Shown one piece after another: positions 23,022 through 64,000 of a DNA stretch of 64,000 bases (the first letter of the stretch is position 1; each line of letters opens with the position of its first letter). Location: NCBI GenBank assembly GCA_965223665.1, contig OZ245011.1:2112001-2176000 (forward strand), read 5' to 3'. The position numbers and the translations under genes are program-made. The stretch comes from Nitrospinaceae bacterium. Its GTDB lineage: Bacteria; Nitrospinota; Nitrospinia; Nitrospinales; Nitrospinaceae. The notes beneath the pieces were generated by a model. It ran no database searches, was not told the origin of the DNA, and saw only the letters and a program-made list of their open reading frames with translations.

Positions 23022-23037
23022 GTTCGACTCCACAAAC

Positions 23038-23162
23038 AAAAAAGCCCCGCTGCCACAGGTCCCTCCTGTGGAGCCGGGCGTCGCGTTTGCGGTGGTCCCA
23101 ACCAAGGCAATTATTTAGTTTTCATTCCTTATTATTATACCAAGTCCGGCCCCATTCGTCTG
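23038..23162 (-). promoter_or_regulatory. Promoter plus conserved attenuator-like leader, copy 1
   Basis: CAGACG-N17-TATAAT (extended TG), then GGGACCAC-CGC/GCG hairpin-GCCCGG..CGGGGC-T6. Confidence 0.7.
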
Positions 23163-23262
23163 CATAAATATTGTTCCACACTCAATTTTTCCAACCTGCG
23201 ATTGGGAGAGGAGAAACACATCAACTATCCTTTCACATATAATTTTGATACAATCGGTAGTT

Positions 23263-23742: not shown

Positions 23743-26700
23743 CAAAAACCATAACTTCTTTGGGCAAATATTTAATTACTTCAACAAAATGATCTTCTAA
23801 ACCCATTTTGTTATTATTAAATGCCGCTTTCCTTTGAGCTTTTTCAATTGCTTCTGGTTTAGAAACATAAGCAGCTAGAGCAAATAACAACGGATTCTTT
23901 GTGTCCTTGAACTGTGGCATTATATTTTTAAACAACCACCACATCCCAGCCTGAATGTTGGTTTCCTGATCCGTCAGGATTTTTTCCGGAGTCCAACCCA
24001 GTTTTTTATTCTCCTCATTCTCCGCAATCAACTTAGCGGTGGCCCGTGTAATTCCCATCGGGCCCATCCGCTTTGCTTCCGGTTTATCATTCGGATCGGT
24101 TGGGAACCCATTCTTCACCATGATGTTCATCACCTGCGCCATCTGATCGGTAGACATCGACACCGACTCCTGAAACCGCTCGGCAATTTGTAACACACTC
24201 GCCTGCCGCGCCTGCTCCGTCGAAAAGTCCAAAGGCGTCGCCTCGGCTATTTGCCCCGATTCAGTTCTCTGCTGATCCTGCCGCTTGCGCCGGATCAACG
24301 CATCGATCAATCGTTCCATATGAGGCTGAATCTTTTTATTAAACTTTTTCACGAGTCCTTCTTTATTTTTTTCCAACTCCTCCAGAGAAAATTCAGCATC
24401 CACCCGTTCGAGCACCCGAGTCACATTCTCCGGTTTGACGCCCGGCGCATACAGCATGGAATCCCCAATCTGATAATCCATCGCCAACCGCGGATTATTT
24501 TTCCACAGTTCCCGCATGTCTTCTGCATTGAGTCGTGTGAGTCCTGCAGCAAAACTATTTGAGGAAGCTTGTTCCACTTTGGGGTTTTGAATCGATTCTT
24601 GATCCGCCAGCATTTCCTCATTAAAACCCTTATGAATTTTTTCTCGGACTTTCTCGTTATAAAACCCGGGTTCTCTTAAATTTTTATAGATAAGTTCATG
24701 ATTCGCTTGCGCATTTTTATGCGACCCCGGTCGGCGCATGTTGACCAGCACCTCTGCCATTTGAGTCCACCCCGGGTCCTTTCCGGTTTCCCTTAAGATT
24801 TTACCGATAATGTCGAATGTCGTTTGCGGTAACCCGATCAGTTGATCTAAAGTAATTGTATAGAATTTGGATGCATCTTCATCTTTCTTAGTCGGATTAT
24901 GCAACGCCGTGGGAAGCCCAACCAAAACATAAATTTCTTTCGGATCTTTCCCTTCCAGATCATCCGCCGAAACCCATTTGCCTCGGTAATGGAGCTTATC
25001 TTTCATCCGACCTCGGATCAGGGAGTTTTCTATTTTCGGACTCGGTGTGGTTCCCTTGAACAATTTAAATTTCAGGATATCTTTGTTATATGCCGATACC
25101 ATGGTATTCAGACTTTTATCATTTATTTTGAGGTTTTCATTTTTCCTGAGAGCTTTAAACTTTTCCAGGTTTTGTAATTGAGCTTCCTCCAGGGGCGGCG
25201 TGTCTAAAGGAACCACGATGCCGGGACCGGAGGAAGAAGAGGAAGAGGAAACAGAGGGACGTTTTCGAGGATCCGGTGTTTGAGCGGCCAGGATACTTCT
25301 GTCCCACAATATCTCCCGTTGGGGCGTGTTTGCTTTAACTCCAATATCGGCAATTTCTTCGCCAGTTAACCTTCTTCCCAACTCCTTTTCCTTTTTCATG
25401 ATATCTTCAATGACCGCAAACACATAGAAATCCTGGTAATCCGCTTCAATCTCTTCCGACTTTATCTGCTGCAAAATGGTAGACACTTCCTCTTTTTCTT
25501 GTTCATACGAGGCACGGAGTTCGTCGATATTAGGAACCTCTTCTGTCTTTGATAGTTTTTCTGCTTTATAAAGGTCGTTGGCCGCTTTTCCAAAACGTGA
25601 TAAAAAAGTGACAATGGAAGGAGGGGCCCCGCGTTCCTCTAAATGGAAATTCGTGTTGGCCAGCCTTTCAAAGCCCAAAGGGTTGGAGGAAACCGCTCCT
25701 CTCAGAAGATCCGCCCAACTTTTGCTGCGATTAAGTTCGATTAAACCGCCGGTGAGGTCTTCTTCCGACGGTTCCCTCGAAGCAAATGGGGAAAACGAAC
25801 CATCGTCCACCGTTAATTTAAATTGACCTTCCTGAGAAGATTCCTCCCCAAACCGATAGCCCGCTCTATCCTCCCATCTTTGGATTAACAATTCCTGTGT
25901 TTTACTGTCCAGAGCCAGCCATTGATCCAGTTTGGTAATTTCCGGTAATGGCACTGGAGTTTCCCCCTTATCAATGAATTGCCGGATATAAACAGAATTT
26001 TCATATTGCGTTTCCATTTTTTTCAGGGTTTCTTCTCGATCTTTATAGGCCATAAAACTTTGCGCCGCTTGCCGTATGTTAGTATTCGGCTCATCGGTCA
26101 ATGCCCGAATTTGCAAATCTTTCGGCAACGAAAAAATCTCGTTGGCCAACGCCTCCCCCGCTTCCAATTCATATTGTCGTTCGATCCTTGCTTCTAATAC
26201 CGCAGTGTCCGTTTCCCCAAACTCCTTTTGATGTGTCGTGAAATACTCCCGTGCCTCCCTGGCATGGCCGGTCTTTAACAGACGATCGATCACCGTCAGG
26301 TTCACCGTACTTAACACATGCTGCCATTCCCGGTTTTCACGTTCCTCCGTCCAACCGAGCAGTCCGGCAAAATGTTCCACCGACAAAAACTCATCGTTTC
26401 AATCTGCTCCTCACCCAACCGGGCCACCAGGGGAGCTACCGCTTCCGATCCCTTACCGGGAATGACTGTGGGATTGCTCTTTAAGTTATCTAAAATTTTC
26501 TGAAACTTTTCTTGGGCCGAGAAACTATATTCATTGTTACTGTCCGGAAAGACTTTTAAAATCATCGGATCGGTTTTTCGTCGCAACTTGAGCGAATCCA
26601 GTCGCGGCATTTTCAGGTGCTGTTCCATAATATTGCGGAGGGTGATGGGTTGATCCATTTCCCGCAATTGTTTTCCGAAATGCCAGAGGCGCGGGCCATG

Positions 26701-26837
26701 AGACTTCCTTCCTGTTTTAAACTTTCTACCGTTTCGTTTTCTGTGTTGGCTTTCAGGGTGGATTCATCCACCGGATTGTCCTGCGATAGCTTGGCACTGT
26801 TTTGACCGGTTTGTTGTTTTCTTATTTTTATTCCCAT
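23705..26837 (-). pseudogene. Internal virion (ejection)-like protein with SLT-like C-terminus; 5' part split by two frameshifts
   Basis: ORFs 26613-26837 (MGIKIRKQ, like the start at 52280), 26311-26667 and 23705-26386 (similar to the 44393 protein); tip GPMGIT..NIQAG.WWL..ALAAY. The 893-aa part may still be expressed. Confidence 0.65.
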
Positions 26838-27139
26838 AAGGTTTCAGTTCTCAATTGGTTTTTGGTTTGAAAATATGAAGAGATTGGGAGTTTTCTTCCC
26901 TGAAGAATGGTGTAAAATCCGATTGGATCCCTTATTTTTTTGCTGGAGGTCAATTACCCCGGCCCGGCCCCTGGCCGGCGGAACCATAATATTCGGGACT
27001 CTCTTTTTACCGGAAAAATTTCCCGTTTCAAATGGCCTATATATATAATGAACAAACTCGTGATTTTTTTCTGGTTTAGCGGCAAATTGAGTCGTTTTCT
27101 GCCTCTTTCCGACGCCAAATTCGGGTAAAAAATCGAGTT

Positions 27140-27631
27140 TTAAGCTGATTTTTCCAGGAAGAGATGCTCTGCACCAGAAGCTGGGATTTCTTTTGTGGTT
27201 ATATACCCCTTCGTGGCGTACCCCAGTTTCTCGTAAATTCCCAGGGTACGCTTCGCTTCCACTTCGGTACTGATTCCCAATGTGATGACGCGTGCCCCGT
27301 TGTCTTCGGCCCACTGTTCAAATACTTTGATCAGTCGAACGCCCAGCGATCCGCCGCGGTGCTCCGGCACAACGTACACTGCCAAATCGGAGGCCATCAA
27401 ATCGTATCCGAAATAATGTTCGGTTATAAAACCAATCATCATCCCCACCGCTTCACCTTCCTTTTCAGCAATAAAGATACTGCCGGAGGGAATCAAAGCT
27501 TCTCCCAACTGTCTGCACTTGTCCTCACTGAAATCCATCATGCGAAAACGCGGACTTTCCTGATGCATGCGTTTGCCCATTTCCATGAGCATCGGAATGT
27601 CGTCCAACGTCGCCTGCCGTATATTAGCCAC
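27140..27631 (-). CDS. GNAT acetyltransferase of the phage structural module
   Basis: IRQATLDDIP, YVVPEHRGG, YEKLGY; GTG start overlaps the tail tubular B stop. Confidence 0.85.
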   Translation of the reverse strand: MANIRQATLDDIPMLMEMGKRMHQESPRFRMMDFSEDKCRQLGEALIPSGSIFIAEKEGEAVGMMIGFITEHYFGYDLMASDLAVYVVPEHRGGSLGVRLIKVFEQWAEDNGARVITLGISTEVEAKRTLGIYEKLGYATKGYITTKEIPASGAEHLFLEKSA

Positions 27632-30404
27632 CGAGTTGTACCTCCAAAGCCATTGATAAAATTGTGGTCGGCACCGGGTCGCGTTGGCGAATGAACGTTT
27701 GCCCCGCGCGATTCCATCCCGGGGTGAGCGCCACTTCAATTTCACTGGTAATCATTTCCGTGGGAAAGCCGTAAGGTTCGGTGGTTCGCTGAATGTAAGG
27801 AGACAGGTGATCGAAGTCCGGCCCCACTAAAAGTCCACGACTGTCTTTCACACGAAAGTACGCATGCGTGACCGATTTCATAAACCCCTGACCAAACGCT
27901 TCGATTTGCATCGCCATCGGCAACGTCACCAGATCTGCTTCAATAGGCAGTCCCACATGCACACGGCCACCGGGTAAATTAAACTGTACCTCACCGTCCG
28001 TCACCACTTCCTGCGAATCGACGCGACCGTCAGAAAAAATCGATACCGTTTGCCCCTCTAAATGATGCAGGTTGTTCACTTTCGATATCTTCTTTCGCAC
28101 CACGCCACCTTCTTCGTAAACATTGTATCCGGTTCCATCCACATCTTCCGGAGTGGTCACCGGCGTTTGCAGTTCAAAGCTGTTCGCATCTGAGTTGTTG
28201 ATCTTAAAGGTATGTCCGTTGAGTTCAGTCATTCCTTCAACATTGGCGATGATCACTTCGTCCCCGTCATTGAATCCATGACTGTTGGCGGTGATCACTA
28301 TGGGATTAGCCTTTGTGGCACCGCTGATGGGTTTGGGATCATCGTAAGTCAACCCGCTGTCCACAAAGAATGCGTCTTCCACTTCGTAAAATCGTCGCGA
28401 ATGCAACCGCTCGATGTAACGACGCTCGACACCGTTAATGGTACGTTTCACCAGACAGTACAACATGTTCTCGCCATTGTTCTCAGGAACTACGGCGGTC
28501 GACTCGAATGCACCTTCTAAAGTGTCGTGGCGGTGCCAGCCGAGAATGATCGGCTGTTGGTCCGGCAAGTAAGTACAGCCCAACAACTTGCCATCGGACC
28601 GCACACACCATACGGTCGAATTGGGATAACGCGAGTAATCCCAATCGAGAACCTTAAACCCGTCGATCAAATGCGGCGCGACCAGTGAAATGTCATCCGG
28701 TTTATACTTGTCCCGTTCAAAGGAGAAGTTAAACGTGTGCACATGATTCCCCTTGTCGGCAATGAACAAAGTGGAATCCCCTACCACCAATGGACGCACG
28801 TCGGCACTGCCAATGTGACTTTGCACCTTGATATTGACGGTGGTGGGAGTGAGCGCGTCTGAGTTTCCAGTGGAAAGTCGCCACTCGTTATTATTGGTGA
28901 AGACCATGAGATCGTTGAGTGAGACCAGGTGACGCACGCTGTTGTGTTGGCGAGATTTCAAACGCACCGTAATCGCGTTGTCGTCCTGCGAAGGAATCGA
29001 TTTGGTTAAATTGGATTCGGTTCCCGAGCGCGTCATCCAGATTGCCTGAGGTAAATCATTGGATGAAGCCAAACAACGGCGCTGGTCGTGATACGCTACG
29101 GTTCCCGGGTAATGGTTCGCCGCATAAAAGGGATCCGGATCAAACGGCGGCGTTTGCAAAACATCCGGTGTGATATTGTCATCAACAAATTCTAAATCGG
29201 AGGTTTGTCCGATGTACCCGTACAAACCTTTTTCCAGTTTGTAAACATTGTAACGGATAGCATTAGTTACCGGCTCCCAACCAATGGTATTATTAGCGCC
29301 ACTTTTTGATAAATCGTTTATGCAAACAGCTTCGCTGACAAATCCTCCAGATACATAGTTGGTGAAATTGGAAGAATCAGTTCCCGACAACTCAAAGGTA
29401 TCAGTATTCGGATTCAAAACGTCGTAAAATTGCCCGTTAATCCCTGAGGTCCCATTCAGTCCTGTCATTCCCTCTACTTCAGTAATTCGAATACGATCAC
29501 CATTGGAGAAAGTATGACCAACTGCTGTAACTAATAAGGGACTACTTCCACTTTTAGTAATGGTTCCGATTGCAATTCCTCTTGCAGGTAGGGATTCCTC
29601 CTGAATATCCTCGTCGATTGCTGTGACCTGATAATCGTAATCAATACTATCTCCTCCACCGGCCCCAACATCTGCAACCGAAGCGACGGTGATTGGTGGC
29701 TCAATCGATGGCTTCCAATCGATGATATTGAATGCCCAGTTGGTGGCGCCCATGCGGCGCAGTTCCCGGGGAGCGTAGGATTTATGAGTGATGGTGACTA
29801 CGTCAGCGCTTTGTTCGAATTTGAGTTGAAATAAATCCGCGGCAGGGTAAGGCGTGGCTAAGGTATACACACAAGCCGAGGTTCCCCCCGAAGTGTAGGG
29901 AGTATAACTCAGGCCATTAATATTGTTGCCTTGTAGATCGGTGAGTTCAAACGTATCGGTGAGTGGATTTTTGATTTTAAAGAACCGGCCGTTGAGTTCA
30001 GTCATTCCACCGACCCCGTTAATAAACACTTCATCGCCTGCCGCATAACCATGCCCGGTAACCGTAACCATTACCGGGTCGGCATTGGTGGCGGCGGTAA
30101 TATTTTGAGCCGTTTCCAATATCGTTGCGCCTTCGGTATGAACGCGCATGTAAAAATCGCCGAACTCCAGAATGTACGCCTGATCTGTATTAAAGATAAA
30201 CGGCAACAAACGCACAGGATTGGGGCCGCCGTCTTTCGCTTCTTTTATAAACTCGAACCCCGAGCGGTTCTCGGCAGGACCGGAAGGTCGTGTGATAAAG
30301 TTTCGACACCTCTCAACTCCAATCTGAAAGTGATGGAGATCGATGCGGCCAAACATTTCAGGAGCCACTTCGGCTCCGCCAAACGAACGTTGATGCGTAC
30401 GCAT
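27624..30404 (-). CDS. Tail tubular protein B (nozzle) with three inserted FCCH-like repeats
   Basis: QRSFGGAEVAPEMFGR, PFIFNTDQAYILEFG, YPGTVAYHDQR, GWHRH, FFVDSGLTY. Confidence 0.9.
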   Translation of the reverse strand: MRTHQRSFGGAEVAPEMFGRIDLHHFQIGVERCRNFITRPSGPAENRSGFEFIKEAKDGGPNPVRLLPFIFNTDQAYILEFGDFYMRVHTEGATILETAQNITAATNADPVMVTVTGHGYAAGDEVFINGVGGMTELNGRFFKIKNPLTDTFELTDLQGNNINGLSYTPYTSGGTSACVYTLATPYPAADLFQLKFEQSADVVTITHKSYAPRELRRMGATNWAFNIIDWKPSIEPPITVASVADVGAGGGDSIDYDYQVTAIDEDIQEESLPARGIAIGTITKSGSSPLLVTAVGHTFSNGDRIRITEVEGMTGLNGTSGINGQFYDVLNPNTDTFELSGTDSSNFTNYVSGGFVSEAVCINDLSKSGANNTIGWEPVTNAIRYNVYKLEKGLYGYIGQTSDLEFVDDNITPDVLQTPPFDPDPFYAANHYPGTVAYHDQRRCLASSNDLPQAIWMTRSGTESNLTKSIPSQDDNAITVRLKSRQHNSVRHLVSLNDLMVFTNNNEWRLSTGNSDALTPTTVNIKVQSHIGSADVRPLVVGDSTLFIADKGNHVHTFNFSFERDKYKPDDISLVAPHLIDGFKVLDWDYSRYPNSTVWCVRSDGKLLGCTYLPDQQPIILGWHRHDTLEGAFESTAVVPENNGENMLYCLVKRTINGVERRYIERLHSRRFYEVEDAFFVDSGLTYDDPKPISGATKANPIVITANSHGFNDGDEVIIANVEGMTELNGHTFKINNSDANSFELQTPVTTPEDVDGTGYNVYEEGGVVRKKISKVNNLHHLEGQTVSIFSDGRVDSQEVVTDGEVQFNLPGGRVHVGLPIEADLVTLPMAMQIEAFGQGFMKSVTHAYFRVKDSRGLLVGPDFDHLSPYIQRTTEPYGFPTEMITSEIEVALTPGWNRAGQTFIRQRDPVPTTILSMALEVQLGG

Positions 30405-42665: not shown

Positions 42666-43148
42666 ATGAAACGAATCTTGTTTACATTGCTATTGGCTGT
42701 GGTTCTTTGGGGTGGGATTGTGGCGGAGGGTGCGCTCGCGGCGGACCGGAATTACACGATCACAAACTGCAACCGTAAAAAACTGTGGGAGGATGTATCT
42801 AGCCGCATCCAGGTTCACAAACCCGAATTGATTGAGTACCTTAAAGAAAACATTAAATCCGATAAAGAAAGACCCCAATTAAGCGAATCCGATTACAAAG
42901 TTATTGAGGAATTTGACAAAAGTATTCAATGGCACGTCTCGGAATGTATTTTATTTATGAGAGAAGCCAATCAATTAATCGATTCCATTTATAAAGTTAA
43001 TTCTGAAAATGCCGACAATATTTCTTGGTATTTTATTGATTTATTTTCACGAAAAGATATCCCTTACATAAGACTTTGGAATAGGAATACTGAAAAAAGA
43101 TCCTTTTCCTTTAACTTTTCTCCTTTAGAACCTGAAAAAATTTATTAA
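42666..43148 (+). CDS. ~160-aa exported protein family, copy 2
   Basis: Same motifs as copy 1; 38-nt overlap with the remnant at 43111. Confidence 0.85.
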   Translation: MKRILFTLLLAVVLWGGIVAEGALAADRNYTITNCNRKKLWEDVSSRIQVHKPELIEYLKENIKSDKERPQLSESDYKVIEEFDKSIQWHVSECILFMREANQLIDSIYKVNSENADNISWYFIDLFSRKDIPYIRLWNRNTEKRSFSFNFSPLEPEKIY

Positions 43149-43910: not shown

Positions 43911-43947
43911 TTCCCAATCAGAATTATTTTTGATACAATTGGTAGTT

Positions 43948-44430
43948 ATGAAACGAATCTTGTTTACATTGCTATTGGCTGTGGTTCTTTGGGGTGGGAT
44001 TGTAGTGGAATCTGCGCTGGCGGCAGACCGGAACTACAAAATCGAAAACTGCGATCGCAAAAAACTATGGGAAGGTTTTTCAATTGAACTGCAAATTGAA
44101 AAACCGGAACTGATCGAATTTTTAGATAAATATGTTAAACCTACAAAAGAAGCTCCTAAATTAAACGAATCCGACTACAAAGATATTGAACAGTTTGACC
44201 AAAAATTTCAATGGAATGTTTCTGAGTGTATATTATTTTTTAAAGAAGCAAATCAATTAATAAATTCTGTCTATGAATTGGACAATAAGCAAGCTACTAA
44301 TATTTCTTGGGTGTTTACTTATTTATTTTCAAGAATGGACATCCCCTATGTCGACTTTTACAATAGAACTACGGACAAATGGTCTTTTACCTTTAACTTT
44401 GCGCCTTTAAGGCAAGGAAAAACTTATTGA
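43948..44430 (+). CDS. ~160-aa exported protein family, copy 3
   Basis: Same motifs; 38-nt overlap with 44393. Confidence 0.85.
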   Translation: MKRILFTLLLAVVLWGGIVVESALAADRNYKIENCDRKKLWEGFSIELQIEKPELIEFLDKYVKPTKEAPKLNESDYKDIEQFDQKFQWNVSECILFFKEANQLINSVYELDNKQATNISWVFTYLFSRMDIPYVDFYNRTTDKWSFTFNFAPLRQGKTY

Positions 44431-47400
44431 TACCCTTTTGCTTGTCCCCATCTAAATACTTACTAACAATTTCATATTTTTCGTGATCTCCTTTTTTCTT
44501 AATTTTTTTTGCCTGTTCCCTAGCTCTTTCTATCGCAGACTTTCCGTATAAAAACTCTCCAATCACAAAGGCCAAAGGATTTTTGGTTTTGTTGTATTTC
44601 TTCCACAACCGACCAAACAAATACGCTTCCACCAACTTGATTTGCTCAACCGGGTTTTTCATGACATCGTCAACGTTAAAGTTCAATCCCTCCACCTTCA
44701 ACAGGTTCACCGCATCCACCATGGTCTGCACCTTCGGTCGGGTCAGTTGGAACAAGCCTTTCTCTCCAGTTGACTTCACCAACTTCGGGTTGAGTCCCGA
44801 TAACATCTGCCCCAATGCACCCAACGTCCTATTGATCTGCCGGTCCGCCACCTCATATTCAAAGGGCGCGGTCTTGGTGACTTGATCAAAACTTTGAATG
44901 ATCTCCCGCTCACTATTAAAACTCACAGCACCCACTTTCCAATCCCCTTGCTGCGCGAACAATTCCGGAGCGCGGCCTTGTTTATCGCGGATAATTCCAT
45001 CGATCAAATTCCCCACCGGTGCGCGAGCCCCTTGTGGAAGGCTGTTTAACATTTCATCTTTTCCGTCCTTTAAGGTTTCCCCGGTCATTCGATACGCATT
45101 TTCGGCCAATACCGTCAGATTATATACCGTACCCTCCGTAAACATCAGGTAATCTCCCAGGCGCACTTTACCTTCTTCCCCTTCCATTTCCTCTTTGAAA
45201 ACTTCCAAAGATTCTTCATCCATTCGCATGACCTTCGGAGCTTTCTTATGAGCCAACGCCTTGTGGACCACCGTCGGCGGCTTGTTTCCATCCGCTATTA
45301 TTTGTTGAACTCCTCCGGCGGGCGTCAGGGCATCCAGCGGAAAAAATTTCGATACACTTTTACCGATCACATCGGCGACGTGTTCATTTTGCACAAGTTC
45401 TCCCTTACCGTTCCAAACCATGATCGCTTTCCGGTCCTGCTGCAAACGTGCTTCATAAACTTCGGCAATGTTTTGCATGGTCAGTTCTTTGTTTTCCCGT
45501 TTGAGTTTTTCCCCAATGGCATTACGCATACTCTCCGGAAGAGCGATCAGGTCCTTCACAAACACCTTCTTGTCCCCTACATTGACATAGGAAGAAAGAA
45601 TCTCCTTGTTCGTCAACTCAACTATCCGGCGGCTGACACCATTTATAAATACTTTGTCATGAAACAGACTATTCATGTAATAAGACATTTCTTTTTCACT
45701 GGGTTCCCGACCTAATTTTTCCTTAAAGTTTTTAAACTTAATTCCTAAAAAAGCATTGGCTCTATCGAAAACATTTTTACGAGTTTCCCGACCCAGGCCA
45801 TTGGCTTTAGCAATGCCCGACAACTTGTTTTGAAAGTTCGCCTTTTTTTCAAGAGAGCTTTCGGACTGAACCGTCTTTTGCCATTGTTTAAAGTTATCCA
45901 CCGTCCAATGTTTTTGAATCAGTTCGTTCAGTCGGGTCTCATCAAACACTTCTTCAAAGGAGCCGCCCTCTGACAATACTTTTTGTAAAACGTCCGTCAA
46001 GACCACGTTTCTAAACTCCGGGTCAAAGTTCACCGACTCCACTTTTTGGCTTAGCGTTCGCAACAGATTCAGTTTATTTTGCAACCGCGTTTTCACCACA
46101 TTGATATCCCCAACCTGCTGTACCTCTCCCTGTTCCGAGTTTTGAACGATTCGTTGATCTTCCTGAATCCCTCCTATAAATTCGTATAGCTTCGAGCGAA
46201 ACTTTCCTTTTTCGTAATGATTCACATCGAATTGATACGCGAAGTTTTTCGCGGGATCCCGGTCACTTAACAAAATGTTATCCACCCATCCCCCAACGGT
46301 TCGGGATTCCTGCTTCAACACGTAATGAGAATTTTCTTCTTTCGCCGATTCCTTAACTTGACCCTGAGACGCAATATCATTTTGGGTAGAGACCAATGTG
46401 GCGGCAGTTCCATCTGCACTGTCTTCTTCAAGGTTCACATCCAGCGAAGTTTTAAACGGCCGTCCGTCATCCACCGCCAATACCGCCTTCCCCGTGAATT
46501 GAGGGGGTTGAAACTCCGGGTCACCCTGCGTGCGCTCTTTGAGTTGCGCCTTCATTACCTGCTTCGTTTTTTCATCTAAAGAATTAAAATCCGGATGGTA
46601 ATGCAAATCCACCAGCGTGGGACTCGTCGGACTGTCCCAAATAAACTTGAAAACCTTCTCACTGTTATCATAGTTCAGTTTTAATTGTTTTCGCTTCTCC
46701 TCCAGATTCCGATGCACCAGTAACTGCCGGGTCATCTCCAACTCTTCCGGATCATCAATATGCCGGAGTTCCTCCTGTTGCTCTTCTTCCGGCAAGGACT
46801 CCAGCACCACCACATTGTGCTGAGCTTTTTCCAGAGTCACCCTTTCCTTAATCCGCGCTTCCAGTTGCGCTTTGTCGGTTTTGACAAACTTGTTTTGATT
46901 CTCCTTAAAAAATTGCTCCGCCTCTTCCCCTTGCTGGCGGTCCAGTAAGCCGTTAACCACACTCAGGGCCACCGCTTCTTCAATATTGGCGGTTTCCGCC
47001 TGGTCCCGTTCCTCACTCCACTCCATCGCCACTTTCATTTGACCCATGGTTCGGTACAAACTCACAATGTGTTTTTCTCTTCCATCAACATCGAGCGGAT
47101 TATCACGTATCGCTTTCAGCAAAGCGGCACGCGTGTGCTGGTAATCCTGAATCAGAGCCCGTTTCCGCTGAGTTTCTTCATACACTCCAGCCCGTTGAAA
47201 CAAATCTGCAAATTTTTGTTTTAAAATGGGCTCATACTCTTTCCGCACATACGACCGCATACCCCCTAACGCATTTTGGAGAGCCTGAAATTTTTCCGAG
47301 GCCGTATCCAATCCGTACTTTTCCATGAGTTCCGGATCCGTCGTGACGGTGGCACTTTCACTTGTAGTCGTATCAGCCGGTTCGAACAAAGGTTTTACGA

Positions 47401-47701
47401 TCTTAACAAGCGCATCCGTGTAGCCAAAACTCCTCTCTCCTTTCAAGGGAGCCAACGTTTTCATTACACTTTCTACATACTCGGTCGTCGCTTTATCTGC
47501 TTTCATTACGGATTGACCATCCGACCTGCGTCTTTGCACGTCCATGAATACAGCCGCTTCGCCTAAAGTGTCACTGAGTGCGGCCAGATTGCGCACTTTC
47601 GCTCCACCGACCAGTTCCGGCGTGACATTCAAACGCAACTGGCCGCCCCCAAGGGATTGGGGATTCACGGTGGGGTTATTTAACGCGGGGATTTTGGGCA
47701 T
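44393..47701 (-). CDS. Internal virion (ejection)-like protein with degenerate SLT-like C-terminal domain
   Basis: MPKIP start, long helical body, position in the structural cluster; tip KGLFQLT..PVEQIKLVEAYL..PLAFVIGEF. Confidence 0.75.
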   Translation of the reverse strand: MPKIPALNNPTVNPQSLGGGQLRLNVTPELVGGAKVRNLAALSDTLGEAAVFMDVQRRRSDGQSVMKADKATTEYVESVMKTLAPLKGERSFGYTDALVKIVKPLFEPADTTTSESATVTTDPELMEKYGLDTASEKFQALQNALGGMRSYVRKEYEPILKQKFADLFQRAGVYEETQRKRALIQDYQHTRAALLKAIRDNPLDVDGREKHIVSLYRTMGQMKVAMEWSEERDQAETANIEEAVALSVVNGLLDRQQGEEAEQFFKENQNKFVKTDKAQLEARIKERVTLEKAQHNVVVLESLPEEEQQEELRHIDDPEELEMTRQLLVHRNLEEKRKQLKLNYDNSEKVFKFIWDSPTSPTLVDLHYHPDFNSLDEKTKQVMKAQLKERTQGDPEFQPPQFTGKAVLAVDDGRPFKTSLDVNLEEDSADGTAATLVSTQNDIASQGQVKESAKEENSHYVLKQESRTVGGWVDNILLSDRDPAKNFAYQFDVNHYEKGKFRSKLYEFIGGIQEDQRIVQNSEQGEVQQVGDINVVKTRLQNKLNLLRTLSQKVESVNFDPEFRNVVLTDVLQKVLSEGGSFEEVFDETRLNELIQKHWTVDNFKQWQKTVQSESSLEKKANFQNKLSGIAKANGLGRETRKNVFDRANAFLGIKFKNFKEKLGREPSEKEMSYYMNSLFHDKVFINGVSRRIVELTNKEILSSYVNVGDKKVFVKDLIALPESMRNAIGEKLKRENKELTMQNIAEVYEARLQQDRKAIMVWNGKGELVQNEHVADVIGKSVSKFFPLDALTPAGGVQQIIADGNKPPTVVHKALAHKKAPKVMRMDEESLEVFKEEMEGEEGKVRLGDYLMFTEGTVYNLTVLAENAYRMTGETLKDGKDEMLNSLPQGARAPVGNLIDGIIRDKQGRAPELFAQQGDWKVGAVSFNSEREIIQSFDQVTKTAPFEYEVADRQINRTLGALGQMLSGLNPKLVKSTGEKGLFQLTRPKVQTMVDAVNLLKVEGLNFNVDDVMKNPVEQIKLVEAYLFGRLWKKYNKTKNPLAFVIGEFLYGKSAIERAREQAKKIKKKGDHEKYEIVSKYLDGDKQKGINKFFLALKAQS

Positions 47702-47815
47702 AAAGTTCACCTGAGTTGAGTGTTACACGGTTTGTTTGAAATTTCCTAAAAAAAGTTTCGATTACAATGTTTATTCCATTGACATCATTTTCAAAGAGTC
47801 CTATATTATTCACAT

Positions 47816-47942
47816 GCCGCCTCGTGCTCATCCCTCCTCTGCAGTCTCACTGGATGTGATTTAGTTTGGGATTGCTTATGAAGCAGGGATGTCAGGTCCA
47901 GGGACATCTAAGGCGTTTGTGGGGGCGCTTTCGCGAGGCGGC
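47816..47942 (+). ncRNA. Structured RNA unit 1 (type A)
   Basis: TTGACA(47779)-N17-TATATT; closing stem GCCGCCTCGTG/CGCGAGGCGGC; three internal hairpins. Confidence 0.8.
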
Positions 47943-48102
47943 TCCGGATTCTCTCCTTCCCCATTTATTCTAATTTTGATTCTTACAATCATTTAGAAAA
48001 CTCGGGGTTACCTGCTGGTAGATTTTCGGAAAGTGGTTCCATTTTCGTTTTCCGAACAGTTAGTATTGACACGATCATTGAATAATCCTATAGTAATCAT
48101 AA

Positions 48103-48228
48103 GCCGCTTCGTGCTCTGCCATCAAGAGCATGCTGACTAGGTTATTTTTTTCAGTATAGCTTTGGAAAGTAGGGGCATCCAGTCTAGGGGTGCCTGAAGT
48201 GTTTGTGGGGGCACTTCCTTGGAGCGGT
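48103..48228 (+). ncRNA. Structured RNA unit 2 (type B)
   Basis: TTGACA(48066)-N17-TATAGT; same fold with divergent sequence. Confidence 0.75.
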
Positions 48229-48293
48229 TTAAATTTCGTTTTCCGAATATTTAGTATTGACACGATCATTTAAAAATCATATATTATTAACAT

Positions 48294-48419
48294 GCCGCTT
48301 CGTGCTCATCCCTCCTGGATAATCTCACTGGACGCGTTATCATTGGGGTTATCTACCAAGCAGGGGTGTCAGGTCCAGGGACATCTAAGGCGTTTGTGGG
48401 GGCGCTTTCGCGAGGCGGC
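48294..48419 (+). ncRNA. Structured RNA unit 3 (type A)
   Basis: TTGACA(48257)-N17-TATATT; same fold. Confidence 0.8.
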
Positions 48420-48582
48420 TCCAGATTCCCTCCTTCCCCATTTATTCTAATTTTGATTCTTACTATCATTTAGAAAACTCTGAATTCCCTGCAGGTGGAA
48501 TTTCAAAAAGTGGCTCAAATTTCGTCTTCCAAAAAAAAAATGGTATTGACACGATCATTGTAAAATCATATATTATTCATAA

Positions 48583-48704
48583 GCCGCTTCGGACTCTAAC
48601 GCCAGGGACTTTACTGACTAGGCCTTAATTCAGTATTAGTTTCGACAGGAGGGACATCAGGCCTAGGGATGTCCAAAAGTGTTCGGGACACTTTACGAAG
48701 CGGT
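48583..48704 (+). ncRNA. Structured RNA unit 4 (type B)
   Basis: TTGACA(48546)-N17-TATATT; loops CTAGGCCT/AGGCCTAG perfectly complementary. Confidence 0.75.
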
Positions 48705-48769
48705 TGATATATTTCTTCTTCCGAATTTCTTGTTGACACGATCATTTAAAAATCATATATTATTCACAT

Positions 48770-48896
48770 GCCGCCTCGTGCTCATCCCTCCTGGGTAATC
48801 TCACTGGACGCGTTATCTTTGGGGTTACTTGTGAAGCAGGGATGTCAGGTCCAGGGACATCTAAGGCGTTTGGTGGGGGCGCTTTCGCGAGGCGGC
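48770..48896 (+). ncRNA. Structured RNA unit 5 (type A), adjacent to the nuclease-tipped gene
   Basis: TTGACA(48733)-N17-TATATT; same fold. Confidence 0.8.
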
Positions 48897-48941
48897 TCCG
48901 GATTCTCTCCATCCCCTTTTATCTAATTTTTATTCTTACAC

Positions 48942-51900
48942 TCAATTAGAAATCTCGGAATTTCCTGCTGGTGGGTTTTCAGAAAGTGGTTCCATTTTTC
49001 CCTTCTTCACTTTATTTTTTATGTAGTTTCCGGACTCAGGAAAACTACTTCTAACTGTATAAAATGTCTCCTTTTCTTCTATAAGTTCTAGAACGGCTAT
49101 TTTTCCCTTACCATTTCTTTTAACTATAATCACGGCTCCATTAGATTTTTGATAAAGCGCTTCAGTATAATTTTTTGTAATATCATAAACAAATTCAGTA
49201 AGGTTTTTGTACTCTGGAAAGTCCCTAAGAATCTTTTCAACTCTGTTAGGGGTTGCCTCAATATGGATACGACCAAAATCATTATCACCTACTTGAAATC
49301 TAATTTTATGTGCCGGAACTTTTCTTCCAGACGGAGTATACATTTCTTTCATTTCCCCAAAGTCGATTCCCCCATCCGGTGATTCCACAAAAGCCTTCGG
49401 GCCCATTCGGATGGAGCCTCTTTCGGAGCGGAGCCACTCGGGAACGGCTTCTACAAAACCGGAACGTTTGACTTCTTTTATGAACTCGACCAGGTGTTTT
49501 ACCCCTTTGCCGGTCAGTTCAAACGCTTCGCCCATGGCTCCGCCTTCGACCACGTTCTTCAGGGCTTTTTCCAGTTCGCTGTCGTCGATTTTCGAGGCCA
49601 GGAAATCGGTAAGAGGATTACGCAGTTCGGGGGCCATTTCGTTGAACAGGTTGGAAAGGTTCTGATCCCGATCCACCGTCAGCAAGTCCGCCGCGATGCC
49701 CGCGATCACGTTCCCGGAACTAAAAAATTCTTTCGACAACACCGCATTTCCCTTGGCAAAGATTCTACGACTGACCAGAAATCCCAACGCAAACGAAAAC
49801 AGTCCGCGAGCCATTTGCACGCCGGGGTTGCTGGAGGCTTCCATCCGCTCCATTTCTATGGGCATGCGTCCGCCGATTCCCCAGTCGTCCAGCCATTCCT
49901 GAACTGTGGTGTTACCGATTTTCAAATCCCGCAGGTCCTGTCCCAGCTCCGTCACCAGAGTCAACAAATTGATCGCCGCATCTTTCGTTCCACCGACGAC
50001 AATGTTCTCGGCCTGGCTCAATAAGCTTTCTTCCCGCCGAAGTTCGGTGTTATCCATACCTGCCAATCGAATTTTAAAATCTCCTCCAAGGGCAACGCCA
50101 TTCGCAAGAGTGACCTGCTTCCCCTGAGACTGAAGTTCTTTTACAAAGATTTCTTTTTTCTCCGGCGGCAATTGCAATAGATTCACGTATTCCTCAAAAC
50201 TGATGTCCTGTTTATTAAACCGGGCATTTTCTCTCAGGGTTTTGTTCTGACTCAAATGGGTCGCAAAATCAGGGATCGATAACTCGATGTCCGTTCCGGG
50301 ATTTAGTGAATTCAATTGCGAGGCAAGGTCGGGAACATTTTGAATAAGATCTTTAAGGTCCAATCCTTCAGTCTCCAGAGCCTGTTGAAACGTTTCCCGA
50401 TTAATAAACACTTTTGGCGTTTGGCTCCCGAAAACCTCAGGATGGTTTTCAACCACTTCTCCTATGTACTGCTTCACTCTTGCGCGGGCGACTCCCTCCG
50501 GCGGCACATCTTTGACCGCTTCATGAATATCCTCCAACATTCTTTTCGTGAGAATAGGCTGATTCGGGTTCGGCTCTGTTCGCTGAGGCAGTCTCAATGG
50601 GGAATTGCCTGTGGAGACCCGGGTCCCTTCGATGAGCGCATTTTCCGGAGAATTATTTTTTATACTATTCCTGGGTAATGGTGGACTTATGGTTTTACTG
50701 GTCCCCTTTGAAGATTTTGGCATCACTTTTTTCAATATCAATTGGGGAACTCCTTCGGCAAATGCTTTATACACCGCATCCGTGGCTTTATCCAATACCT
50801 GTTGTAACCGCTGGGTCGGCGATAACAAAGATCCGGGTTTTTGGGGATCGGATTCCACCGCCATTTCTTTACCCAATTCACTGAAAAATGACTGTAAAAC
50901 ATTTTTTTCCATTTCTTCCGTGATCCCCTGGCTGGTCTGATTGATAGCCTTCAGTAATTTTTTTCCTTTTTTACTGGTCAAAAATGTTTTGATTCCATCC
51001 GAGATATATTTTTTGGAAGCTTTGGAGAGCGGTTTGGTAAAAATCTTCCCGCCAAAAAATTCTACCGCCGCATTGATGGTAGCCACATTGAAGGCAATCG
51101 GTTTGGCCAATTCCATAGAGGTTCCATTCATTACCAGTTCAGCAATCGTCGTTCCATATTGGGTTTTCCAGGTATCGTACGCATCACCGCCTCTGATTCC
51201 CAACCCAAACCCCGTCAAACCGAAAGCCGGTAACGTGACGGCTTCTTCGGGAAGAAAATTGAGTCCCGGAAAATTTCCCAGAATCAGGGATAACTCCACA
51301 CCCGCCAGTGCTCCCGTAAAACCGCCTGTCAACAATTCAGGAGATTTGTGTGCGATATTTGTAAATACTTCCGCGACATTAAAAACCGTTCCGGTCCCCT
51401 TGTTTTGACCCATTAACCGTTCCAAATTTTTAATTTTGTTGAGTGCGGCATCAAATTCTTCCTGGGTGCGACCAGGCTGACTCATGTAATTGCCAATTTC
51501 TGCCCGCTTTCGAAAATAGCCAACAAACTTCATCGCTTTGCCCACATCAATCACGCCTTTTTCAAACACACCTAATTTCCCGACCCTGCCAAAGTCCATT
51601 GAAAAATAATTGAAGTCTTCGGTCATCTTCTTCTGCAATACAGTAGTATCTTTGAAAACCTCTGCGGTCCTTTGGTGATTCCATTCCTTTTGGGCATTTT
51701 GGAAATCGTTTTTTATGATTTCAACCGGTATATCCAGTTTGCGCGATAGAAACTGGATTTGCGCCGCATGTTCCGGAGACACTGAAGAAGAAACCAAAGT
51801 GAATGGGTTTTCCGGCTGTTCATTACGAATAGAACGTTTCAATCCCATAGCGCCATCATAGAACGCGCCAAGTCCTAATCCTCTATCTTCGGATTGTTTG

Positions 51901-52280
51901 TCAAAAACAACTTCTTCCAGAACAGTGGGTGGCCCCACTTGGGCATGCACCTCCCCCTGAGACGGGTTGGACGGAAGATCGCTTTCACCGGTCCCCGGTT
52001 CATTGACATTCAGTCGATTTCCCTGATTACCAAAGTCACCTTTCATTCCTGCATCAAATGGCTCGGTTGAAGACGAGCTATTCGAGCGGCCTAAAGAAGC
52101 CAATTGAACGGGGTCCCCTTCAGAGGGTTCTGTGGAAGGTTCGTTGCCCTCGAATCTCTGTCCAGGATTCGGTGGGTTTAATGGAGATTCTAAAGTATCA
52201 GTATCTTCATCGATGGAGTCCGCTTCTACTGAAACGGAGGATGCCCGTGAAGTGGGTTGTTTTTTAATTTTGATGCCCAT
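48942..52280 (-). CDS. Large internal virion-like protein with C-terminal BECR/PBECR-like nuclease domain
   Basis: Follows the small internal virion gene; Gly/Ala hydrophobic segments; tip DGGIDFGE..IRFQVGDNDFGRIHIE..FVYDITKNY..YTVRSSFP. Confidence 0.7.
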   Translation of the reverse strand: MGIKIKKQPTSRASSVSVEADSIDEDTDTLESPLNPPNPGQRFEGNEPSTEPSEGDPVQLASLGRSNSSSSTEPFDAGMKGDFGNQGNRLNVNEPGTGESDLPSNPSQGEVHAQVGPPTVLEEVVFDKQSEDRGLGLGAFYDGAMGLKRSIRNEQPENPFTLVSSSVSPEHAAQIQFLSRKLDIPVEIIKNDFQNAQKEWNHQRTAEVFKDTTVLQKKMTEDFNYFSMDFGRVGKLGVFEKGVIDVGKAMKFVGYFRKRAEIGNYMSQPGRTQEEFDAALNKIKNLERLMGQNKGTGTVFNVAEVFTNIAHKSPELLTGGFTGALAGVELSLILGNFPGLNFLPEEAVTLPAFGLTGFGLGIRGGDAYDTWKTQYGTTIAELVMNGTSMELAKPIAFNVATINAAVEFFGGKIFTKPLSKASKKYISDGIKTFLTSKKGKKLLKAINQTSQGITEEMEKNVLQSFFSELGKEMAVESDPQKPGSLLSPTQRLQQVLDKATDAVYKAFAEGVPQLILKKVMPKSSKGTSKTISPPLPRNSIKNNSPENALIEGTRVSTGNSPLRLPQRTEPNPNQPILTKRMLEDIHEAVKDVPPEGVARARVKQYIGEVVENHPEVFGSQTPKVFINRETFQQALETEGLDLKDLIQNVPDLASQLNSLNPGTDIELSIPDFATHLSQNKTLRENARFNKQDISFEEYVNLLQLPPEKKEIFVKELQSQGKQVTLANGVALGGDFKIRLAGMDNTELRREESLLSQAENIVVGGTKDAAINLLTLVTELGQDLRDLKIGNTTVQEWLDDWGIGGRMPIEMERMEASSNPGVQMARGLFSFALGFLVSRRIFAKGNAVLSKEFFSSGNVIAGIAADLLTVDRDQNLSNLFNEMAPELRNPLTDFLASKIDDSELEKALKNVVEGGAMGEAFELTGKGVKHLVEFIKEVKRSGFVEAVPEWLRSERGSIRMGPKAFVESPDGGIDFGEMKEMYTPSGRKVPAHKIRFQVGDNDFGRIHIEATPNRVEKILRDFPEYKNLTEFVYDITKNYTEALYQKSNGAVIIVKRNGKGKIAVLELIEEKETFYTVRSSFPESGNYIKNKVKKGKMEPLSENPPAGNSEISN

Positions 52281-61269: not shown

Positions 61270-61752
61270 ATGAAGCGAATCTTGTTTACATTGTTAATGG
61301 CTGTGGTTCTAATTGGTGGGATTGTGGTGGATGGTGTGCTGGCAGCCGACCGGGACTACAAAATCAAAAACTGCCAACGCACTAAAGTGTGGCCGGAGAT
61401 ATTGGATCATATTCGTTTAGGCAATCCAGAGTTAAAAGATTTTATTGAAAAAAACATCAAACCGACTCGGGAAGATCCATTATTGAGCAAGGACGACTTT
61501 CAAGAAATTGAACGGTTGGATAAAAACATTCAGTGGTATGCCGCCGAGTGTGTCCTTCTAATGAAGGAAATAAATATCTTAGTCAAAGCAGTTCATGAAG
61601 TAGATCCTGAAGAAACATTTTTTATTGCCAATCCAATTTATAGAATACTTGGAAAACTTAAAATTCCTGTTATAGTAAACTCCAAGGGAGTTAATGATCT
61701 TGCTGTTTTCTCTTTTAACTTCTCTCCTTTTTCTCCGGAAGAAACTTATTAA
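61270..61752 (+). CDS. ~160-aa exported protein family, copy 6
   Basis: Same motifs; 38-nt overlap with 61715. Confidence 0.85.
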   Translation: MKRILFTLLMAVVLIGGIVVDGVLAADRDYKIKNCQRTKVWPEILDHIRLGNPELKDFIEKNIKPTREDPLLSKDDFQEIERLDKNIQWYAAECVLLMKEINILVKAVHEVDPEETFFIANPIYRILGKLKIPVIVNSKGVNDLAVFSFNFSPFSPEETY

Positions 61753-62563: not shown

Positions 62564-63046
62564 ATGAAACGAATCTTTATTACAATTATAATGGCTGTGG
62601 TTCTATACGGTGGGATTGCGGTGGAATGTGCGGTGGCGGCAGACCGGAACTACAAAATCGAAAACTGCAACCGCAAAAAAGTCTGGACGGAGGTTTTTGA
62701 TTATATTAATTGGAATAATCAGAATCTTAAAGTATTTATAGAAAAGAATATAAAACCTACCAAAGAGGATCCAAAATTAACTGAAGATGACTACAAGCAA
62801 ATTGAACAACTGGATAAAAATATTCAGTGGTTTGCATCTGAATGCGTTCTATTAATGAAGGAAATCAATGTTTTGATAAAGGCAGTACATGAAGTTGATC
62901 CAGAACAAACTTTTTATATTGCTAATATAATTGAAAAAAATCTAAATAAGGAACAAATTCCATCATTGTGGAACTCTAAAGGTGTAAATGATCTAGCGGT
63001 TTTCTCTTTTAACTTTGCTCCCTTTTCTCCGGAAAAAAATTTTTAA
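62564..63046 (+). CDS. ~160-aa exported protein family, copy 7
   Basis: Same motifs; 38-nt overlap with 63009. Confidence 0.85.
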   Translation: MKRIFITIIMAVVLYGGIAVECAVAADRNYKIENCNRKKVWTEVFDYINWNNQNLKVFIEKNIKPTKEDPKLTEDDYKQIEQLDKNIQWFASECVLLMKEINVLIKAVHEVDPEQTFYIANIIEKNLNKEQIPSLWNSKGVNDLAVFSFNFAPFSPEKNF

Positions 63047-64000
63047 TTAATCTTTTATAGTTTTCTGGTGCTGTCTCGATAACTAAATCTAGTTTTAATT
63101 TTGTTCCTTTTGCACTTCCTTCCACCTTTTTCTGAGCTTCACTCATTAATTTATCCCCAACCAAATAATGCATTAACGCAAAGCCCATTGGATTATCGGT
63201 TACATCCCTGTAAAAAAGTAAATAATAATTTACCAATAGCCACGTGGCTCCTGCAATATTTTTTCTCGGGTCCGTTAAAATATCATCTACCGAATAATTC
63301 AAACCACTTTCTTTAGCAATTATTTCAGCCTGCCTTCGTGTCAAGCCCATTACTCCCTGTGGAATTTGTTCGTCTCGGACTCCCCATTTTATACGGGAAG
63401 ATTCGTTGGCCATTTTTAAGAGTACAGTTTTCCATGGCCCAAGGTTCACTCCCGTATTGTCTTTATTGCGACTCAATCCTTCGTTGATGACTGCCGCCAC
63501 AGAATTCGCATCTCTCAAATCAAACTTGGCAGGTTGCGGCTGCGCCTTGTTTCCTCGCTGCGCGAACAGTTCCGGAGCGCGGCCTTGTTGTTTATCGCGG
63601 AGGATGTTATCGAGTAAACTTTCTACTTTCCGGACCGCCTTCTCGGAAACTTGTTTTCTTACATCCTTCAGAATCTCACTTTTACTCTGTTTCAATTGTT
63701 CTGCCGACATGCGAAAAGCGCTTTCTACCGGGAACGTTATGTTCTTCAACTGATTGCCGTCAATCATCACATAATCGTTCCGCGCAAACTTCCCCTGCTT
63801 TTCATCAAACACATCACGGAACCCGGCCCAGGCCGCTGCATCCAACTTCCCTATGATCACTTCCGAGTTCTGTTGTGTTCGTGGATCACCGGGATTCAAA
63901 TTACGCTGCTTTCCCTGCTCAATGAGCTTCTTAAGTTTCTGCGAAAATCCCTGACCGCGCACAATCCCCTGTGGAGTGTATGTTTCATCGATAACTTCGC
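63009..64000 (-). CDS. Ejection-protein-like gene with SLT-like tip (probably runs off the window)
   Basis: RDKQQGRAPELFAQ shared with 44393; MANESS..GVMGLT..NIAGATWLL. Confidence 0.75.
   Translation of the reverse strand, partial: EVIDETYTPQGIVRGQGFSQKLKKLIEQGKQRNLNPGDPRTQQNSEVIIGKLDAAAWAGFRDVFDEKQGKFARNDYVMIDGNQLKNITFPVESAFRMSAEQLKQSKSEILKDVRKQVSEKAVRKVESLLDNILRDKQQGRAPELFAQRGNKAQPQPAKFDLRDANSVAAVINEGLSRNKDNTGVNLGPWKTVLLKMANESSRIKWGVRDEQIPQGVMGLTRRQAEIIAKESGLNYSVDDILTDPRKNIAGATWLLVNYYLLFYRDVTDNPMGFALMHYLVGDKLMSEAQKKVEGSAKGTKLKLDLVIETAPENYKRLIKNFFPEKREQS

Follow-up and report, generated by a model that had tools for sequence, protein, structure and literature searches.

Introduction

Phage genomes have been mined mainly for proteins, and few phage RNAs with an elaborate fold have been described; each of the earlier ornate ones (pRNA, ROOL, GOLLD and the RNA antitoxins) opened new biology or technology. 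Here we describe an array of five small structured RNAs, each with a predicted promoter of its own, which occupies positions 47779-48896 of the + strand in a 64,000-nt stretch of the genome of a Nitrospinaceae bacterium (GenBank assembly GCA_965223665.1, contig OZ245011.1, positions 2,112,001 to 2,176,000). This whole stretch is referred to below as the window, and coordinates are window positions unless a locus is named. The array had been pointed out in an earlier note on this DNA, made from the letters alone. It provides a compact new RNA fold, well supported and available in 11 natural variants, including alleles of loop specificity.

Among the closest described systems is the pRNA of phage phi29, which is likewise phage-borne and ~120-130 nt long, has its ends paired in a closing helix and its body organized around a multi-helix junction, and carries two loops that are complementary to each other and covary between variants. 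In contrast to the array RNAs, it is built on a three-way junction with a 4-nt loop pairing, whereas here the junction is four- or five-way, three arms are enclosed by the closing helix and the loops can form 6-8 bp. Furthermore, pRNA is encoded by one gene per phage (here by five genes), and its carriers are protein-primed phages without a classic terminase, while the array belongs to an epsilon15/BPP-1-like prophage with a small terminase.

As to the tandem layout, it is known from sibling small RNAs (sRNAs), such as LhrC1-4 of Listeria, NsiR1 of Nostoc and CcsR1-4 of Rhodobacter, where homologous small-RNA genes also stand head to tail under their own promoters, and duplication provides dosage or redundancy. 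However, these sRNAs are simple, with a hairpin or two, a terminator and a seed that is single-stranded and conserved, whereas the array RNAs have a closed junction and a loop-loop helix, show no recognizable terminator hairpin or conserved seed, and are encoded inside a virion module. The type III and AbiF antitoxins (ToxI, RCd22) resemble them in being structured RNAs of mobile elements, often repeated, that bind a protein, and one solitary copy of the RNA described here does precede a co-oriented open reading frame (ORF) for a HEPN protein, just as these antitoxins stand ahead of their toxin genes. Unlike the type III antitoxins, which are 34-45-nt repeats cut from one transcript by a toxin whose gene is always adjacent, the array consists of individually promoted ~130-nt units, and 10 of the 11 known copies have no adjacent toxin candidate.

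In the aptamers of the purine and lysine riboswitches a closing P1 helix leads into a junction, and neighbouring hairpins have paired loops. The array RNAs follow the same fold logic, but show neither a match to a riboswitch model nor an evident expression platform. Finally, ROOL and GOLLD are RNAs of ~600-800 nt, usually encoded near tRNAs. They are prophage-associated and elaborately folded, and a recent report describes them as forming RNA-only homo-oligomers by intermolecular contacts (10.1101/2024.12.08.627333). Unlike the ~130-nt, arrayed and individually promoted RNAs described here, which have no Rfam match, they are single genes.

Array layout and promoters

The five units are arranged head to tail in the order A-B-A-B-A, and the period of 476-480 bp given in the earlier note agrees with the measured A-to-A distances of 478 and 476 nt. 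The covariance model (CM) described below matches the units at 47814-47950, 48101-48236, 48292-48427, 48581-48712 and 48768-48904, with start-to-start distances of 287, 191, 289 and 187 nt. Measured between the outermost bases of the terminal stem (P1), these included, they are 127, 126, 126, 122 and 127 nt long, close to the ~125 nt estimated before. The uneven spacing results from the alternation of two kinds of 3' flank: type A (units 1, 3 and 5) is followed by a conserved spacer of ~120 nt, and type B (units 2 and 4) by a short U-rich tail right after P1.

All five units are preceded by a putative promoter, scored against the sigma-70-type consensus, which consists of TTGACA, a 17-nt spacer and TATATT (TATAGT in unit 2) and agrees with the consensus at 11 of 12 positions in each case. 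Exactly 8 nt past the -10 hexamer begins GCCGCYTCG, again in 5/5 units, and this motif pairs with CGRRGCGGY at the 3' end of the unit to form a terminal stem of 9-11 bp. Both the promoter motif with its fixed distance and the pairing of the unit's ends had been noticed earlier, and the description of the units as individually promoted is borne out at the level of promoter sequence. Eight promoter-like sites were counted in the 1.9-kb region versus 3.5 +/- 1.8 in shuffled sequences, and the five strong ones are in register with the repeats. The arrangement TTGAnn-17-TATAkT, together with the 8-nt distance to P1, is retained in 10/10 array copies of two species.

On the + strand, unit 1 has its promoter (TTGACA-17-TATATT, 11/12 consensus, 8 nt to P1) at 47779..47807 and its type A RNA core, from the 5' strand to the 3' strand of P1 (127 nt), at 47816..47942. 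The long spacer past it (47943..48065) is conserved in sequence (repeat family D1) and weakly structured; it contains a CU-rich stretch and an imperfect inverted repeat and may be a 3' extension of type A transcripts. Then follow the promoter of unit 2 (TTGACA-17-TATAGT, 48066..48094) and its type B core (48103..48228), with the U-rich tail after P1; the promoter (48257..48285) and type A core (48294..48419) of unit 3, with a long spacer at 48420..48545; and the promoter (48546..48574) and type B core (48583..48704) of unit 4, whose loops, CUAGGCCU and AGGCCUAG, could form 8 pairs. Unit 5 (promoter 48733..48761, type A core 48770..48896) is followed by a long spacer at 48897..49010, which overlaps the 3' end of the convergent gene for a 1112-aa protein.

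In their degree of conservation the spacers roughly equal the RNA cores. No classic, simple terminator hairpin was found in the array. Nor is any credible or conserved ORF common to the units, as the earlier note had stated: the longest (64 aa) is an antisense one, and where type A has an ATG at its 5' end, type B has AAG.

RNA fold and covariation

Inside P1 there are a long interrupted arm (arm 1, here P2) and two hairpins of 7-9 bp (arm 2, here P3, and a third arm, P4), i.e. the three hairpins per unit that had been recognized before; the loops of P2 and P3 are designated L2 and L3. Folded as single sequences, type B units give P1 around P2, P3 and P4, and in type A a competing CAUCCCU/AGGGAUG pairing appears; the folding z-scores of the five units range from -1.9 to -3.8. 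RNAalifold, applied to the five units together, predicted P1-P4 with 38 pairs, 13 of them with compensatory changes on both sides. The stem sequences quoted in the earlier note are present, except that arm 2 of unit 3, assigned there the common type A sequence GATGTC/GACATC, reads GGTGTC/GACATC and includes one G.U pair.

A CM built from the five units was then used for the homologue search, and the pairing was counted over the resulting 11 copies on two alignments, one fitted by the CM and the other produced independently by MAFFT, for 44 pairs. Standard pairs occupy 91.3% (CM-fitted) and 89.9% (MAFFT) of the cells, versus 35-49% and 36-49%, respectively, in a control with the 3' partners slid by 1-3 columns. 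P1 is paired in 95% of the cells in both alignments, P3 in 100% in both, P4 in 93% (CM-fitted) and 96% (MAFFT), and P2 in 76% and 69%. Both sides have changed in 19 of the 44 pairs in either alignment, a number attained by 0/500 shuffles of each, although these shuffle statistics overstate independence, because the 11 copies are paralogues from two genomes. The claim of covarying stems is nevertheless sustained by these counts, the helices being kept paired by compensatory changes while the sequences diverge by 20-35%.

The pairing is also strand-asymmetric: of 480 pair cells, 438 are standard when read on the + strand, including 103 G.U pairs, and only 345 would be on the - strand. The G.U pairs thus identify the + strand as the structured one. 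Taken together, P1, P3, P4 and the loop-loop helix described below are 93-100% paired with compensatory changes, and, judged from these alignments, an RNA structure is under selection. A scan of all column pairs of the alignment revealed no further convincing covarying helix, i.e. no extra tertiary pairs.

As for the conserved multi-way junction proposed in the earlier note, the fold and its covariation stand, while the base of P2 leaves two forms of the junction. Pairing of columns 25-29 with columns 64-68 gives a four-way junction, and pairing of the same columns with 13-17 gives a small additional hairpin with a C-rich loop of 7 nt and hence a five-way junction. The former option is the stabler in 8 of the 11 copies and the latter in 3.

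Loop-loop complementarity

In every copy the 5' part of L2 is complementary to L3, with 6-8 contiguous pairs (11/11). The loops read CUGGAC/GUCCAG in type A, CUAGGCCU/AGGCCUAG in unit 4, CUAGGU/GUCUAG in unit 2 and CUAGACC/GGUCUAG in a solitary copy from the second species. The six core pairs are standard in all 11 copies, and two of them covary, one being A-U in 7 copies and G-C in 4, the other A-U in 5, G-C in 3 and G-U in 3. The earlier note had proposed a loop-loop pseudoknot; complementarity and covariation of the loops are found throughout, and we infer, rather than observe, that they pair within one molecule and not between molecules.

A cross-table of the loops reveals two specificity classes, as L2 of type B makes only 2 contiguous pairs with L3 of type A; L2 of type A can still make 6 pairs, including wobbles, with L3 of some type B copies.

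Comparison with known RNA classes

Searched with Rfam 15 at gathering score, the whole window gave no match. At E <= 10, the region 47700-49050 produced only three rows (E 2.9-9.1, 12-14 bits), all on the - strand and belonging to SNORA38 and Cobalamin, none to pRNA. At the locus of the solitary copy there were likewise only rows with E > 2.9 and no match to the abiF motif. ARAGORN found no genes in the window, so tRNA, tRNA-like RNA and tmRNA were rejected. With these searches empty, the statement of the earlier note that the family is not a recognized one holds, and, as far as sequence searches can tell, the array fits no known RNA family.

Several other classes were considered. Bacterial Y RNA is not supported, as no Ro/TROVE protein (PF05731) was found in the genome of the window (98.6% complete, controls positive) and no Y RNA row appeared in the Rfam scans; RNAs of retrons, diversity-generating retroelements or defense-associated reverse transcriptases are disfavoured by the lack of any reverse transcriptase (PF00078) match anywhere in this genome. 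A CRISPR array or an RNA anti-CRISPR mimic does not agree with repeat families 118-191 nt long, spaced at 187-289 nt and without unique spacers, and a riboswitch does not agree with the lack of a downstream co-oriented ORF in 10 of the 11 copies and of any riboswitch model match at threshold. With regard to a CsrA sponge, CsrA is encoded and most copies have two AGGGA motifs, which are located at the P3 base and not in loops; the GGA of L2 is not conserved.

Further copies and distribution

The CM revealed six more copies, all of them in the genus' one other species (genome G001; the genome of the window is G000). Five form an array at the same place in the syntenic element (L017:9054-10128), and one is a solitary (solo) copy on a different, small integrative island (L018:9328-9462). 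Among 101 relatives, matches were found in two genomes, G000 included, and among 120 genomes of the phylum credible matches were again confined to two, G000 included, with three further hits at chance level (E 0.46-0.93). The prophage capsid is present in the same two genomes as the RNA.

Outside these genomes, a DNA similarity search in 50,697 phage records found no match to the array. A pattern of P3 and the loops had no match in viral contigs or in metagenome contigs, and in genome contigs matched only three G001 places; a pattern of promoter and P1 had a single match in viral contigs, which the CM identified as a false positive. Protein-guided searches for the locus gave nothing in viral contigs or in metagenome contigs. 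Two others each yielded a single locus: in one case this was a capsid fragment of 37 residues, in the other a distant IMG/VR relative, which lacks the array according to the CM. A closer protein relative (P0003), 84% identical in the common domain, lies on a 19-kb contig.

The array is present in contigs of four DNA runs of one study. Among the loose contig ends in these runs are copies resembling those of G001, one or more additional 3' flanks and the promoter in a different setting, so that the habitat must contain more variants. A 36-nt segment with the promoter of unit 5 (48732-48767) was found in 4/4 of the runs on a contig with foreign sequence on both sides, foreign meaning that it occurs in neither G000 nor the fetched G001 loci. 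This promoter thus seems to serve elsewhere in the habitat too, in a different context or organism.

Mobile-element context

In both species the array lies antisense inside a module of - strand virion genes, convergent with a large gene on one side and followed by the next - strand gene on the other. The order of the module on the - strand is portal, Bbp19-like protein, an ORF of scaffold size, GP7-type capsid, Bbp16, T7-gp14-like protein, a 1112-aa protein, the array and a 1105-aa protein. The small terminase is encoded further right (L029:6123-6647), and a 521-aa ORF without a family match occupies the position expected of the large subunit. The capsid shares 65% identity with its counterpart in Cobetia phage Carin1, and 48-55% with the capsids of podoviruses of Vibrio, Microcystis, Nostoc, Salmonella and Enterobacter. 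By its capsid, portal and Bbp16 types, read from sequence, the host element is an epsilon15/BPP-1-like prophage.

The gene of the 1112-aa protein (48942..52280, -) encodes an internal-virion-protein-D-like domain at residues ~750-960, of which residues ~760-930 match "internal virion protein D" in six phage records. The 1105-aa gene (44393..47710, -), whose product has a weak C-terminal SLT match, starts back-to-back with the promoter of unit 1, 68 nt away; in the other species the gene at this place encodes an unrelated protein of 711 aa. The flanking proteins had no match among solved structures or in PADLOC. Carin1 and three other cultured relatives have no gap between the corresponding genes, and the CM found no RNA match in these four or in the distant IMG/VR relative; the array is thus inserted here as accessory cargo.

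The solo copy belongs to an island of ~15 kb, which encodes a tyrosine integrase, a Toprim/DnaB-like primase-helicase and an SLT protein, along with a protein of 1252 aa that carries the same ~200-aa internal-virion-protein-D-like (gp16-like) domain with 54% identity. All three RNA loci are thus situated on mobile elements beside a gene with this domain. The solo promoter has its TTGACA and TATAAT 15 nt apart instead of 17, which is why this copy fails the promoter scan. The RNA precedes a co-oriented ORF for a 187-aa HEPN protein, 135 nt downstream (L018:9624-10160), and the two form one cassette inserted against the orientation of the flanking genes. On the other side it adjoins the gene of a 2727-aa RHS toxin.

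Two side observations concern this locus. The island, at L018 10429-18405 and L041 1-6421, lacks a capsid of the prophage type and has a satellite-like layout. The 2727-aa protein (L018 675-8858, -) is an RHS/teneurin-like YD-shell protein with a C-terminal "Cytotoxic" domain of the colicin E3 type.

Discussion

The reading that we tentatively prefer, while placing it somewhat below the point at which we would call it probable, is that the units are autonomous small-RNA genes of a new family, which podovirus-like mobile elements of a single Nitrospinaceae genus carry as accessory ("moron") cargo, and that their products are high-dosage, partner-binding RNAs. A host sigma-70-type promoter would start transcription 1-2 nt ahead of P1; type B transcripts would end in the U-rich tail past P1, and type A transcripts would probably continue through the conserved spacer of ~120 nt. 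The host RNA polymerase could make these RNAs abundantly in the lysogen or early in infection, with dosage supplied by the five strong tandem promoters. The loop-loop helix would lock each RNA into a compact, nuclease-resistant fold, and the RNA would work in trans as a binder that titrates some partner (a protein or another factor), not by pairing with mRNAs. Transcription, RNA ends and partner are all deduced here, and the arguments are as follows. Stable, abundant, trans-acting RNAs are suggested by the promoters with their fixed geometry and five-fold dosage, by the sealing of the ends and by covariation specific to one strand. In the sequences, the conserved bases are mostly situated in helices and at junctions, and the 5' and 3' ends are sealed in P1; the conserved features are thus helices, bases of the junction and a tertiary contact, and not a seed in a single strand, which favours partner binding over mRNA pairing.

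A number of points weigh against this reading. The RNA family is found in two genomes only, and the 11 copies are paralogues from three loci, of ~4-5 sequence types, among which gene conversion is possible. The two pairings of columns 25-29 at the base of P2, with 64-68 or with 13-17, are mutually exclusive. In the four-way model P2 would have ~16-18 bp versus 7-8 bp in P3, and this difference of ~9 bp between the arms would be awkward for an intramolecular kiss, which is then not obviously favoured. None of the RNA runs is listed as containing the array locus. Lastly, type A has C/U-rich single strands, CAUCCCUCCU and, in the spacer, UCUCUCCUUCCCC, which resemble anti-Shine-Dalgarno seeds.

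The last point leads to sibling base-pairing sRNAs, i.e. redundant trans regulators whose C/U-rich segments or loops would pair with Shine-Dalgarno regions of host or phage mRNAs. We consider this explanation unlikely, even though tandem homologous genes with their own promoters are a known arrangement, repeated here in 5 + 5 units with conserved putative promoters, and a seed could be provided by the stretch between P1 and P2 of type A, by that in its 3' spacer or by the 7-nt C-rich loop exposed in the alternative fold. Types A and B differ in the C-rich stretch, of which CUC alone is invariant; no classic terminator hairpins were found, and seed pairing needs neither an elaborate junction nor covariation between loops. 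Moreover, a blastn-short search of the five units and their spacers against the whole host genome gave antisense matches at chance level only, none longer than 14 perfect nt or than 18 nt with one mismatch. One of them, of 16 nt with one mismatch, joins L2 of unit 5, but not of the other units, to a coding 36-nt tandem repeat. This repeat, at G000:C1:1428700-1429460, has ~20 copies and reads ...ITRPVTRP... in translation. An action in cis appears distinctly unlikely. It would have the five promoters fire head-on into the late operon and the antisense RNAs pair with the intercistronic leader, so that leaky expression of downstream virion genes in the lysogen is stopped. Structured antisense RNAs that start pairing through their loops are classic (RNA I, CopA, P22 sar), and here, in both species, the array runs towards the 1112-aa gene from the space that separates it from the next - strand gene, its RNAs being fully complementary to any late transcript reading through. 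Yet such interference requires promoters only and leaves the selection for closure by P1, for G.U-rich + strand helices and for complementary loops unexplained; furthermore, the solo copy is not similarly placed between two co-directional virion genes, and the downstream gene (1105 aa versus 711 aa) is unrelated between the species.

Self-assembly of the RNAs, with L2 of one molecule paired "hand in hand" with L3 of the next, into phi29-like rings or chains, we regard as improbable. Types A and B would then assemble for the most part separately, as scaffolds or decorations of some machine of the phage or the host. The complementary, covarying loops of 11/11 copies and their two specificity classes fit such a scheme, and so does the unequal length of the arms in the four-way model, which would disfavour an intramolecular kiss; in the five-way model, by contrast, P2 and P3 would both have ~7 bp, which suits one. 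By analogy, size and layout recall pRNA, with its closing helix and two loop-bearing arms, and a report on pRNA describes its multimerization by kissing of identical molecules (PMC4201828); prophage-borne ROOL and GOLLD are reported to form oligomers of RNA only (10.1101/2024.12.08.627333). On the other hand, Rfam gave no pRNA match, L2 of type A can still pair with L3 of some type B copies, and the small terminase together with the 521-aa ORF at the position of the large subunit implies that packaging needs no pRNA. If closed homo-oligomeric rings of this kind do exist, a pRNA-like quaternary RNA would for the first time be known from outside the phi29 group, namely from a podovirus-like prophage that uses a terminase and resides in a nitrite-oxidizer lineage, and two largely orthogonal assemblies, A and B, would be encoded side by side. 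Still less do we expect the RNA to be an antitoxin or its mimic, with the solo copy neutralizing the downstream HEPN protein in a type III-like manner and the toxin-less, promoter-rich arrays titrating such toxins as a counter-measure of the prophage. This idea stems from the single inserted cassette of co-oriented solo RNA and HEPN ORF in G001, and it has precedents: a prophage non-coding RNA is reported to neutralize an Abi_2/AbiF toxin by direct binding (10.1101/2025.04.15.648962), and an account of phage escape describes an expanded pseudo-antitoxin RNA repeat (PMC3475682). However, the HEPN gene occurs at one of the three RNA loci and has no homologue in G000; the two other Nitrospinota genomes with HEPN homologues have no credible CM match, and in one of them (G008) the region upstream leaves no room for such an RNA. 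The HEPN ORF itself matches no PADLOC model, no Rx4-6H motif was seen in its sequence, and its locus has no abiF-motif match in Rfam; the units, of ~130 nt and with promoters of their own, differ from 34-45-nt processed repeats, and no co-oriented ORF follows either array. As for a non-functional or DNA-level repeat (a recombination scar, protein-binding iterons or an origin) with incidental RNA-like features, one could cite for it that the family is confined to 2 of the phylum's 120 genomes, which is a very narrow range, and that the spacers are about as conserved as the cores, which fits recent duplication or gene conversion. We hold it to be highly improbable all the same, as four helices and the loop-loop helix stay paired through compensatory changes at 20-35% divergence, the pairing is strand-asymmetric and the promoter geometry is exactly conserved.

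Whichever reading is true, a temperate phage-like element would make a new use of RNA, whether the RNA serves as a protein decoy, mimics an antitoxin, assembles itself into a ring or regulates in an unusual way, and the array would be a first functional handle on the mobile elements of the poorly studied Nitrospinota. The promoters should work in Escherichia coli, which makes such ideas cheap to test.

Other features of the window

Further left in the window, the region 20082-30404 contains large - strand ORFs of 1007, 893 and 926 aa and a + strand ORF of 165 aa. Parts of this region are 77-87% identical to the DNA that flanks the array in G001, which indicates a rearrangement between the two species.

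At least eight + strand ORFs of ~160 aa converge on the 3' ends of - strand ORFs with an overlap of ~37 nt. They are located at 42666-43148, 43930-44430, 61270-61752 and 62564-63046 and within L029 6686-12037. Several of the partner ORFs on the - strand have an SLT lytic-transglycosylase domain (e.g. 63009-63962, L029:7644-8681 and L029:9689-10591), and the whole resembles in its gene layout an array of polymorphic C-terminal cassettes with partner genes. One of the 160-aa ORFs has a weak match to Cas2 in PADLOC (E 5e-5).

Two long inverted repeats, 43406-43448/43867-43909 (43 nt, 93%) and 43851-43910/60935-60994 (60 nt, 85%), are both built around CCCTCTTT..AAAGAGGG. One of the pairs spans 17 kb and brackets the virion module, and the repeats might be boundaries of the element or recombination sites.

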